From sequence record PZ347775.1: 64,000 bases of DNA. One strand, 5' to 3'. The DNA comes from a phage. Below are positions 10,996 through 14,627 of this stretch, piece by piece. The notes under the pieces are model-generated. The model did no database searches. It saw only the letters and a list, made by a program, of their open reading frames with translations, and was not told where the DNA came from. The first letter of the stretch is position 1; every line of letters starts with the position of its first letter. The translations under genes were made by a program, and so were the position numbers.

Positions 10996-11212
10996 ATTGT
11001 TTTTCCGTTAAAACAGTAATATCATAATAACAATCAGAAGAAGTTTTAACTGTAGAAATTTTATTATCAAAATACTCACGAGTCATTTTATGAGTATAAT
11101 ATTTTTTGCCATAAATGATAATAGGCTGTTCTGGTCCTGGAACTTCTAACTCGCTTGGATTAGGAAGTGTAAAAAGAACGACACCAGAAGTATCCTTAAA
11201 TCGTAAAATCAT
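10949..11212 (-). CDS. hypothetical protein (about 87 aa)
   Basis: Track ORF 10949..11224 trimmed to first ATG (MILRFK...) with GAGAGGA SD; overlaps previous ORF in another frame. Confidence 0.45.
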
Positions 11213-11235
11213 ATATCCTCTCAATTAAATTAAAA

Positions 11236-12096
11236 TTACACCGCCATCTTTCCTTTCAATACACCGTGGGACTGATAATCTTTGAGAACGAAATCCCGTG
11301 CTGTCATATATTCAGTTAACCAATACATTTGAGTTTCAGTATCGCATTGACTGAATCCATTAGGCCAATTAATACTGAGTTTGCATAGATCCATAGGAGT
11401 TCTATTTAATATCTCTTTGCATTGCTCAATATGGTTAGAATAAATGTGTGTATTACCACCCGAGAATACCAAATCGCCCGGAACTAGTTCACACATATCA
11501 GCAACAATATGTAAAAGAGCAGCATAACTCGCGATGTTAAATGGAAGACCGAGGAAAACATCTACCGAACGTTGATACCATTGGAGGTCAAGGTATCCGT
11601 TACGCACATTAAACTGATAGAACATATGACAAGGTGGTAATGCCATCTGCTTGAGTTCAGCTGGATTCCATGCCGACACAATTTGGCGTCTATCATTGGG
11701 AAATGTTTTAATACGATTAACAACTTCTACAATTTGATCTACACCACCAAAATCACGCCACTGTTTTCCGTAAATTGGACCAAGTTCACCGCTATGATAA
11801 CCTAAGTCTTTGGCCTGGTTTTCGTAGTTTTCATCCCAAATTGTTTTTCCTGCAATTAAAGATCCATGAGTACGTTGACGTAAATCATTTACGTTAGTAC
11901 TTCCTGATAAGAACCACAATAACTCAGAAATACATGCATTCCAGGCGAGCTTCTTAGTTGTTACTGCAGGAAAACCTTTAGTTAAATCCCAGCGTAATTT
12001 AGTACCGAACAAAGCAATTGTTCCTGTGCCCGTTCGGTCATCGGTTTCATAGCCATTTTCAAAAATGTTTTTAATTAAATCTTGGTATTGTTTCAT
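11236..12096 (-). CDS. td: thymidylate synthase (intron-less)
   Basis: 286 aa continuous ORF; catalytic Cys motif PPCH; ThyA-like throughout. Confidence 0.95.
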   Translation of the reverse strand: MKQYQDLIKNIFENGYETDDRTGTGTIALFGTKLRWDLTKGFPAVTTKKLAWNACISELLWFLSGSTNVNDLRQRTHGSLIAGKTIWDENYENQAKDLGYHSGELGPIYGKQWRDFGGVDQIVEVVNRIKTFPNDRRQIVSAWNPAELKQMALPPCHMFYQFNVRNGYLDLQWYQRSVDVFLGLPFNIASYAALLHIVADMCELVPGDLVFSGGNTHIYSNHIEQCKEILNRTPMDLCKLSINWPNGFSQCDTETQMYWLTEYMTARDFVLKDYQSHGVLKGKMAV

Positions 12097-12141
12097 TTAG
12101 TACCTTATATAAATTATAATACATTTTATGAAGCTAAATAA

Positions 12142-12489
12142 TCAATACGGTTTAGCATCAAATTTTCTTTCAACTTCAGGTGTGAAATATAATTCTTTAC
12201 CACGTTTGGAAAAGCGACCAATAATATGATAATTATTCTCATCAAACGTAATATTGCCAATATCCATAGCTTTCAACCAAATATCGATATTTCTGTCAAG
12301 CTTTATATCAAAATTCCAATACGGAGAACTATTACCGAAAATACTGCAAGCGGATTCAGTGAAACAACTGCTATAAATCTTGTCTTTAGGAACTACTAAT
12401 TGATAGACGCCTTTAATAAACTGAGGACCCTGCCATTTTGGTTGTTTCGCGTCTTTTTCTAATAGAATAGGGTAATAATTAAAATTCAT
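12142..12489 (-). CDS. hypothetical protein (115 aa) between frd and td
   Basis: ORF track; ATG start; no recognisable motif. Confidence 0.6.
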   Translation of the reverse strand: MNFNYYPILLEKDAKQPKWQGPQFIKGVYQLVVPKDKIYSSCFTESACSIFGNSSPYWNFDIKLDRNIDIWLKAMDIGNITFDENNYHIIGRFSKRGKELYFTPEVERKFDAKPY

Positions 12490-12508
12490 ATTTTCCGCCA
12501 GTGTTATT

Positions 12509-13338
<830 letters not shown>

Positions 13339-13346
13339 TTTATCTC

Positions 13347-13682
13347 CTAATATAAAGGATCGGGAACATATCCACTAGCTTTAATCATTTTAATTAATGT
13401 TAACATTCCTTTATTAACTGCTCGTGAAATTTCATCAAAAACTTCATCACTAAAAAGTTCTAACACGCCCTTCTGAACTTTTAATTTACAACCAACAATT
13501 TCGTCATCGCCTATAGTAAATTCGTTTCCGCCAATTCCACCGAAAAACTTAATTACGCCAGTTAACTGTCTTCCACGAGAATATGGGTCGTGTGATAAAG
13601 TAATATGAGTCACCCCAGGTACAGTTTTAAATTGGCAGCGAATGTTTACTTGGGAAATTCCAGTTACATGAATGTCAGACAT
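13347..13682 (-). CDS. hypothetical protein (111 aa)
   Basis: ORF track. Confidence 0.55.
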   Translation of the reverse strand: MSDIHVTGISQVNIRCQFKTVPGVTHITLSHDPYSRGRQLTGVIKFFGGIGGNEFTIGDDEIVGCKLKVQKGVLELFSDEVFDEISRAVNKGMLTLIKMIKASGYVPDPLY

Positions 13683-13692
13683 AATATTTTCC

Positions 13693-13935
13693 TCAAACAG
13701 ACTTTTTCACAGTTTTCCAATCAGCTTTAAACTGATCGACGTCAGAATGGTAAATCCAGAATCCTGCGCTTTCTCCATCTTCATAAAGAGGACATCCATC
13801 GCATTCATCTTCCCATCCCATATCACGCAAAAGACGTTCAGCTTTTTCAACAAGTTCAGAATCTTTACCGATGATATTAAAATACCATTTACCCCTAACT
13901 TCTGAATCTTTAATGCTCTGACGTTGTAATCTCAT
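13693..13935 (-). CDS. hypothetical protein (80 aa)
   Basis: ORF track; AAGGAG SD; early promoter upstream. Confidence 0.55.
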   Translation of the reverse strand: MRLQRQSIKDSEVRGKWYFNIIGKDSELVEKAERLLRDMGWEDECDGCPLYEDGESAGFWIYHSDVDQFKADWKTVKKSV

Positions 13936-13960
13936 TTTATTCTCCTTAGTTGATAGGGTA

Positions 13961-13990
13961 ATAGTATCACACTACTACCCTACTGTAAAC
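13961..13990 (-). promoter_or_regulatory. sigma70 early promoter (GTTTAC -35, TACTAT -10) with stem-loop
   Basis: Reverse complement GTTTAC-18nt-TACTAT; inverted repeat agggta/taccct within spacer. Confidence 0.5.
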
Positions 13991-14352
13991 TACTTTTTGA
14001 AAGTTTTTCGCAAAAGTTCAATGATTTCATCTACATTGTTTTCGTCAACAATGCAGTGAATTTTTGTTACGCCAGAAACCTTGTCTTCGACTTCATCTTC
14101 AGAAGTCGGTTCTTTATACTCACGAAAACAATGAAATTCATCTTCGCAGACGTTGAAGTAAAAATGCTTTCCATTGGCGCATTCTACGTGTTTTACTACT
14201 TTAAATCCATCAGCAAAGAAAACTTCTTTAACTTCAAACCATCCGCCATTTTCTTGAATAGCTTTAACTATTAATGAATTAGAACGCGGGCGATAATTAA
14301 TAAATGTATCAATAAGTCTTGGAACAAGTTCGTACTTTTTATCAATATACAT
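13990..14352 (-). CDS. hypothetical protein (120 aa)
   Basis: ORF track. Confidence 0.55.
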   Translation of the reverse strand: MYIDKKYELVPRLIDTFINYRPRSNSLIVKAIQENGGWFEVKEVFFADGFKVVKHVECANGKHFYFNVCEDEFHCFREYKEPTSEDEVEDKVSGVTKIHCIVDENNVDEIIELLRKTFKK

Positions 14353-14396
14353 TATGTTTTCCTCATTTTAATAGGGGCTTGATAGCCCCTCGATAA

Positions 14397-14627
14397 TTAC
14401 TGTTCAATCAATCCCATGTAAAATTCTGCATCTTCAGCATCCATACCATCACAGTATTCATTAGCCATAAATCGTTCAAGAACTTCTAAAGGACCTTCAA
14501 TAACAATAGAAAAATTGCAATAATTGGGATCATCATGAATACTTGTGATACTAAGTTCAGGATAACGATTACGAATAATTTCTTCAATATATTCAAAATC
14601 AACGATGTCAATATCAACTTTAGCCAT
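14397..14627 (-). CDS. hypothetical protein (about 76 aa)
   Basis: Track ORF 14397..14699 trimmed to internal Met (MAKVDIDIV) with AGAGGA SD so it no longer overlaps gene 32. Confidence 0.45.

Follow-up and report, generated by a model that had tools for sequence, protein, structure and literature searches.

The frd–td junction

The window, which is the whole 64,000-nucleotide stretch of phage DNA in record PZ347775.1, comes from a Tequatrovirus and is approximately 95% identical to its nearest records. An open reading frame (ORF) of 115 codons, here called ORF115, is located in it between frd, the gene for dihydrofolate reductase (DHFR), and td, the gene for thymidylate synthase (TS). All three are on the minus strand. 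In the ORF listing, ORF115 occupies 12142–12489, with its ATG at 12489–12487 and its TGA at 12144–12142. The upstream neighbour, frd (12509–13093, TGA at 12511–12509), matches Pfam DHFR_1 (E 1.2e-18) and phrog_316; the downstream neighbour, td (11236–12096), encodes 286 amino acids (aa) and matches Pfam Thymidylat_synt over its full length (E 3.6e-95). A spacer of 19 nucleotides (nt) (AATAACACTGGCGGAAAAT, 12490–12508, minus strand) separates ORF115 from frd, and one of 45 nt (TTATTTAGCTTCATAAAATGTATTATAATTTATATAAGGTACTAA, 12097–12141, minus strand) separates it from td. An original prediction, made from the sequence without database searches, had placed a 115-codon ORF with spacers of these lengths at the junction, and the coordinates confirm it. 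Its statement that frd and td overlap in T4 is also correct: in NC_000866, frd is at 145109–145690 and td ends at 145112, giving a 4-nt ATGA overlap with nothing between the two genes. No second copy (paralogue) of ORF115 is found elsewhere within the 64-kb window.

The mechanically called frd frame has 203 aa (12509–13120) and begins at an upstream ATG at 13120. The ATG at 13093 (MIELVF...) is a likelier start than this one and the most likely of all, because frd of teqskov is annotated as 585 nt. This ATG overlaps the stop codon of the upstream 81-aa ORF as TAATG, another junction of the translational-coupling type.

The 19-nt spacer contains a weak Shine–Dalgarno-like sequence, GGCGGA, and is kept in T2, RB33, Killian, FL44, and teqskov. 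NHEP29 lacks it, and there the frd TGA overlaps the ATG of the ORF. The 45-nt spacer is identical in T2, RB33, and Killian and is 44 nt long in FL44 and teqskov; NHEP29 has an unrelated 15-nt spacer ahead of td instead. The two elements pointed out earlier in the 45-nt spacer, TATAAT (12118–12113) and an AAGG Shine–Dalgarno sequence (12106–12103, 6 nt ahead of the td ATG), are both present, but the TATAAT is weak evidence for a td promoter and is regarded here as a putative element only. Transcription starting about 7 nt downstream would land on the Shine–Dalgarno sequence. A sigma-70 consensus scan of 11000–14500 gives 23 promoter-like sites as compared with 15 ± 4 in shuffled sequence, so such matches are only slightly enriched in the AT-rich DNA of this region. 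Finally, NHEP29 swaps the spacer for its unrelated 15 nt.

Conservation and predicted fold of the ORF115 protein

Sequence comparison shows that ORF115 is a real gene for a functional protein under strong purifying selection. The ratio of non-synonymous to synonymous substitution rates (dN/dS, Nei–Gojobori), from which this follows, is 0.02–0.06 in 14 of the 15 pairwise comparisons between six Tequatrovirus alleles; for the window and NHEP29 ORFs, dS is 0.74 and dN is 0.036. An un-gapped dN/dS value for T2 frd is invalid owing to an internal indel or mosaic patch and was not used. Compared with T2, RB33, and Killian in 100-nt segments, ORF115 is the best-conserved stretch of about 350 nt in the frd–td region (97–99% identity); elsewhere in the region, parts of frd and td are 59–96% identical to the same phages, with one stretch of frd at 64–76% and the 3′ half of td at 59–78%. 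A profile search, one of the checks proposed with the original prediction, places ORF115 in phrog_1928 (E 2.7e-35), with residues 4–111 aligned to positions 2–125 of the 126 in the profile.

In the family alignments, Q16, W19, G27, G91, K95, and G97 are invariant, and all of them are present in the window ORF. L9, Y29, N79, F93, and F102 are nearly invariant. The family motifs are LLExDxxQKKW...HGIYxLxF and GNIxF...IIGRFxKxGxxxxFxP. With its full-length match, the same slot, and the same motifs, the window ORF is a plain member of phrog_1928. The isoelectric point of family members is mostly 8.5–9.3 (mildly basic). The copy in Yersinia phage PST (L018, 989–1354) ends in ...DAKQLII as compared with ...DAKPY, from a small indel near the stop codon, and the PST record annotates a longer ORF with an upstream start.

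Free-standing endonuclease genes are common between T-even genes (T4 annotation), and scans of ORF115 with Pfam and NCBIfam give no match. A spurious intergenic frame, or the remnant of a homing endonuclease or other mobile element, could look like this, yet the selection and conservation data refute such an origin and we give it practically no chance. Against it count the dN/dS of 0.02–0.06, the residues invariant across phrog_1928, and the confidently predicted fold; furthermore, none of the 33 family members has a GIY-YIG, HNH, or other nuclease match. The Pfam scan of these 33 members gave only scattered single matches at E > 0.01 and no consistent domain, and no PADLOC family matches ORF115 at E up to 1.

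The structure prediction, which had also been proposed as a check, was run with AlphaFold2. An alignment of 4 sequences gave a poor model (predicted local distance difference test, pLDDT, 61); with an alignment of 33 sequences, the pLDDT is 91.9 and the predicted template modelling score is 0.85. The DSSP elements of this model are strands 6–12, 27–34, and 62–64, a helix at 68–76, and strands 80–82, 86–96, and 99–104. The order b1-b2-b3-helix-b4-b5 fits an OB fold at the level of secondary-structure elements. The nearest comparison among known folds is with OB-fold nucleic-acid-binding domains (HIN, RPA/Teb1, Cdc13, S1, and the RecO N-terminal domain), which the ORF115 protein would at most resemble in its mode of action. 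A structure search against the PDB gave no significant match and no significant superposition on a known OB domain. A sequence profile search of the PDB gave nothing below E 0.01; the best match, TagH (E 0.014, over a Walker-B-like stretch), was judged spurious. All matches from the BFVD structure search are to uncharacterised proteins of T4-like phages; weak similarities of fold extend to phages of Aeromonas and Pseudomonas. With low confidence, the model suggests that the protein is a single-domain β-barrel with OB-like strand order. Also with low confidence, the conserved polar and aromatic residues would lie on the OB ligand face: Q16 and W19 in the b1-b2 loop, R92, K95, and G97 in the b4-b5 hairpin, and N79.

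Distribution and history of the junction

Searching 50,697 phage records with the ORF115 protein (tblastn) gave 581 matching records, 363 at 90% identity or above and 218 below 60%. The first group includes T2, RB14, RB3, RB33, AR1, PP01, and teqskov, and the proteins of T2, RB14, AR1, and PP01 are 99.1% identical to that of the window. The second group consists of T4-like phages of Klebsiella, Enterobacter, Edwardsiella, Erwinia, Citrobacter, Serratia, and Salmonella. A query with the T4 frd–td flanks matches 515 records; among the rows sampled, most carry about 416 additional bases (ORF115), some carry about 206, and a few are contiguous as in T4. The comparison of the junction across T4-like phages, proposed together with the other checks, thus yields three types: ORF115, a 68-aa ORF (ORF68), and contiguous. 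The contiguous junction is found in T4 isolates, RB55, RB59, vB_EcoM_112, HY03, SG1, and ECO07P1.

The shares of the three alleles were obtained by subtraction rather than by direct count, and we estimate roughly 70% for ORF115, about a quarter for ORF68, and a few per cent for the T4 type. A 54-nt junction query is unfit for counting the T4 type because a direct repeat (described below) lets both of its halves align in ORF-bearing phages. Judged from these matches, ORF115 is the majority allele in Tequatrovirus and T4 has a minority allele, so that the reference phage carries the rare form.

The class with about 206 additional base pairs holds the 68-aa ORF, a member of phrog_9550, whose start and stop codons overlap frd and td (ATGA, TAATG). 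In fFiEco06, it is annotated as FE6_242 (L003, 1664–1870). We considered whether the fFiEco06 ORF is a truncated relative of ORF115, but the two are unrelated (hhalign probability 0.1%); they occupy the same frd–td slot, ORF68 doing so in other Tequatrovirus phages and in Dhakavirus. The 68-aa ORF occurs in 238 phage records, including Sf21 and Dhakavirus JS98, and more distantly in Phapecoctavirus (41–43% identity); its presence there implies that it passes between myovirus groups that are not related. In Klebsiella phage PWKp18, the 68-aa ORF and a phrog_1928 gene occur together.

The frd–td junction is, on this comparison, a polymorphic site with at least three alleles in Tequatrovirus. ORF115 is dispensable, since T4 and other phages do without it, and the alternation of different small ORFs at one site is typical accessory-gene behaviour. 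The original prediction had called ORF115 an extra, inserted accessory gene. The term accessory is apt for a dispensable gene at a polymorphic site with alternating small ORFs. The gene is indeed absent from T4, but the words extra and inserted are misleading: the ORF is the majority Tequatrovirus allele (363 records at 90% identity or above, of about 515 flank matches) and is old at the locus, and the derived or minority state is that of T4. The same prediction had allowed that the ORF might turn out to be a conserved, characterised T4 gene. It is indeed conserved and already annotated at this position, as RB32ORF229c in RB14/RB32, as the hypothetical protein XUQ82819 in T2, and as ar1_242 in AR1; however, the gene does not belong to T4 and is uncharacterised.

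The frd–td interval also holds homologues in Edwardsiella phage PEi26 (Kanagawavirus), Klebsiella phage Mineola (Jiaodavirus), Erwinia phage Cronus (Roskildevirus), Salmonella phage STML-198 (Gelderlandvirus), and three metagenomic Tevenvirinae contigs whose genes run 59-32-frd.3-frd.2-frd.1-...-frd-[ORF]-td-nrdA. The placement is constant in all loci examined, eleven contexts that include teqskov, T2, and RB33. In the other genera, the reading frames mostly overlap both frd and td. Identity to the window copies across genera is 30–43% for the ORF, 43–48% for frd, and 71–77% for td and falls in step; a divergence parallel to that of frd and td agrees with vertical inheritance of a small protein that evolves faster.

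Tequatrovirus has a single copy, as compared with a tandem pair in PEi26 (ORF-253/ORF-252), STML-198, Cronus, and several metagenomic relatives (two of the three contigs); the second ORF has 115–144 aa. The tandem ORFs are paralogous (hhalign probabilities 97.5, 95.3, and 93.2%), and all copies match phrog_1928. In the B paralogue, the QKxW motif is followed by about 16 inserted residues. A HMMER search of 1.84 billion representative proteins gave 22 clusters, 20 of them single-domain proteins of 95–116 aa. Two long 'homologues' from this search, P0021 and P0023, are repetitive unrelated proteins and were judged spurious. A profile search with the B paralogues added 37 proteins of 113–148 aa, among which there are no Pfam domains or fusions. 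Outside T4-like phages the family appears to be absent, and almost every member comes from Tevenvirinae of enterobacteria. Because homologues occupy the same spot in at least four other Tevenvirinae genera, we place the family at frd–td since before these genera split, usually as one or two tandem paralogues.

The flanks of T4 and the window are orthologous; T4 differs in lacking the 416-bp ORF segment and in carrying a group I intron with I-TevI in td. A direct repeat brackets the segment in the window. Copy 1 (TAAATGAAATAACAC, 12501–12515, minus strand) takes in the frd stop codon and the next 8 nt and contains a vestigial ATG-AAA-TAA. Copy 2 (TAAATGAAACAATAC, 12085–12099, minus strand) spans the td start codon. 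The copies agree at 13 of 15 positions and are 416 nt apart. Exactly one copy is present at the junction in T4 and ECO07P1, and that of T4, TAAATGAAACAATAC, is identical to copy 2 in an alignment that includes fFiEco06. Recombination between the repeats (13/15 nt) would delete the ORF and leave the ATGA overlap of the T4 type. As synteny holds across genera, we favour an ancestral family that was lost in T4, with the 19-nt-spacer arrangement as a derivative specific to Tequatrovirus.

The same repeat could instead record a recent insertion, in which the cassette entered an overlapping frd/td junction like that of T4 and made a second copy of about 15 nt of target, with no loss in T4. We regard this as improbable. 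The 13/15 repeat does flank the 416-bp segment, with a decayed td-like start (ATG AAA TAA) just 3′ of frd, although the 9-nt exact match may be due to chance in AT-rich DNA, and it is simpler to suppose a deletion between short repeats. The 19-nt spacer is peculiar to this arrangement, NHEP29 and the other genera having overlapping frames, and NHEP29 shows that the ORF is able to occupy diverged flanks; these features suit an insertion. The homologues at this site in four or more other genera, which diverge in parallel with frd, and the majority status of the ORF-bearing allele do not.

Mutual exclusion of the ORF and the td intron/I-TevI is ruled out, since the two occur together in PST and FL44. 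The ORF is found without the intron in the window, T2, and RB33, and the intron without the ORF in T4 and ECO07P1. On this distribution, the ORF occurs independently of the td intron. The 286-aa td frame of the window is uninterrupted, lacking the T4 group I intron with I-TevI, and no Rfam family, group I introns included, is found anywhere in the 64 kb; T4 has introns in td and nrdB.

The enzyme genes around ORF115 are themselves uneven. The 3′ half of td (11236–11650) is at least 99% identical to ime09, Shfl2, CrRp10, and teqskov and only 59–78% identical, per 100 nt, to T2, RB33, and Killian. It is a minority allele, with 272 of the 468 matching records at 80–90%, and the break in identity is near the region of the T4 intron and I-TevI site. 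In frd, a patch of about 200 nt (approximately 12690–12890) is 64–81% identical to T2, RB33, and Killian, as compared with 89–98% for the rest of the gene, and looks like local mosaicism within an enzyme gene. Upstream of frd and also on the minus strand, an 81-aa ORF (13093–13338, no Pfam match) and a 111-aa ORF (13347–13682, DUF7247, E 1e-43) are located between frd and frd.1 (13693–13935, minus strand, DUF5417). Both ORFs also occur in teqskov and in metagenomic Tevenvirinae contigs. T4 has neither of them, only a 71-nt gap, which leaves it with less DNA than its relatives both upstream and downstream of frd.

Possible roles of phrog_1928

We lean towards the reading that ORF115 is a genuine, expressed accessory gene, old at the locus and lost in T4, whose product is a ligand-binding OB-like protein. 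The reading frame of the family overlaps or abuts frd and td and therefore belongs to the same transcription unit as these nucleotide-metabolism genes, often with translational coupling. Judged by its position, it would be expressed alongside the early and middle genes of nucleotide metabolism. The protein would bind a ligand rather than catalyse a reaction, acting as a non-essential modulator in the early or middle phase of infection; binding is preferred since there is no catalytic motif and the modelled barrel is small, with conserved loops along one face. The ligand may be a single-stranded nucleic acid or a nucleotide-derived molecule, which we put forward only tentatively.

Several points weigh against this reading. 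Which way the event at the repeats went is ambiguous, as the ATG-AAA-TAA may stem from duplication of the target when the cassette re-entered a T4-type junction. In NHEP29 (L014, 417–2224), the ORF is 93% identical to that of the window, but frd is only 58% and td 83% identical; a conserved ORF in diverged flanks implies that the cassette (or its flanks) has also been exchanged between lineages by recombination. The supposed clustering of the conserved residues on one face comes from generic OB topology and the order of secondary-structure elements. The representative-protein searches, which did not extend to a scan of bacterial genomes, gave no domain fusions or bacterial homologues pointing to a ligand. 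The papers searched hold nothing on RB32ORF229c, phrog_1928, or the ORF peptide sequence and likewise give no pointer to a ligand.

A small, dispensable, and patchy ORF at a site with three alternating alleles, with tandem paralogues in several genera, would also suit counter-defence or host takeover, the role suggested in the original prediction. The product would then block a bacterial immunity system or another host factor, for instance, by binding up a signalling nucleotide or inhibiting a sensor, and would be kept or lost with the hosts met. Expression with early and middle genes, as judged by position, and the cassette exchange between lineages in NHEP29 fit this role as well. We nevertheless consider it possible but rather doubtful. 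There is no similarity to PADLOC models and no sequence or fold match in the PDB, a comparison that assumes the PDB to hold the solved anti-defence proteins and that did not include a dedicated anti-defence database. The ORF sequence is also absent from the supplements of one accessory-gene screen. A dN/dS of 0.02–0.06 together with 97–99% identity is unusually conservative for an arms-race gene, though this is not decisive.

The purifying selection on ORF115 is comparable to or above that on frd and td, and it could reflect a partner of nucleotide synthesis, a protein that binds DHFR, TS, or the deoxynucleoside triphosphate (dNTP)-synthetase complex and tunes its activity, stability, or localisation. 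Such a partnership, if true, would account for the ORF staying between frd and td, where its position is constant in eleven contexts and its frames overlap both neighbours in most genera. On the other hand, Tevenvirinae genomes are collinear overall, so the constant position may be historical, and an unrelated 68-aa ORF fills the slot in other phages. The DHFR, TS, and dNTP complex of T4 are functional, and T4 has them without the ORF. No sequence link to folate or nucleotide enzymes is seen. We therefore think a partner role unlikely, more so than counter-defence.

A further proposal makes phrog_1928 a new OB-like ligand-binding family specific to T4-like phages and active in counter-defence, as a nucleotide-signal sponge or a blocker of a nucleic-acid sensor. 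It would form an A/B heterodimer in most genera and a homodimer in Tequatrovirus and would help to explain the host-range differences between T2, T4, and T6. As a combined proposal, this is a long shot.

ORF115 is already known, as hundreds of T-even genomes have it annotated as a hypothetical protein. The difference from T4 amounts to a simple presence/absence polymorphism of an ordinary uncharacterised accessory gene. For the frd–td locus, T4 is a poor reference, since it carries what appears to be a rare deletion allele. The junction can be described as a three-allele cassette site bounded by coupling signals of the ATGA type, and it offers a small model of how T-even phages may swap accessory genes without upsetting the translational coupling of the flanking enzymes. 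The family itself is a good target for functional work: phrog_1928 is constrained, confidently folded in prediction, and unlike solved structures, and it comes with natural knock-outs (T4) and natural duplications.
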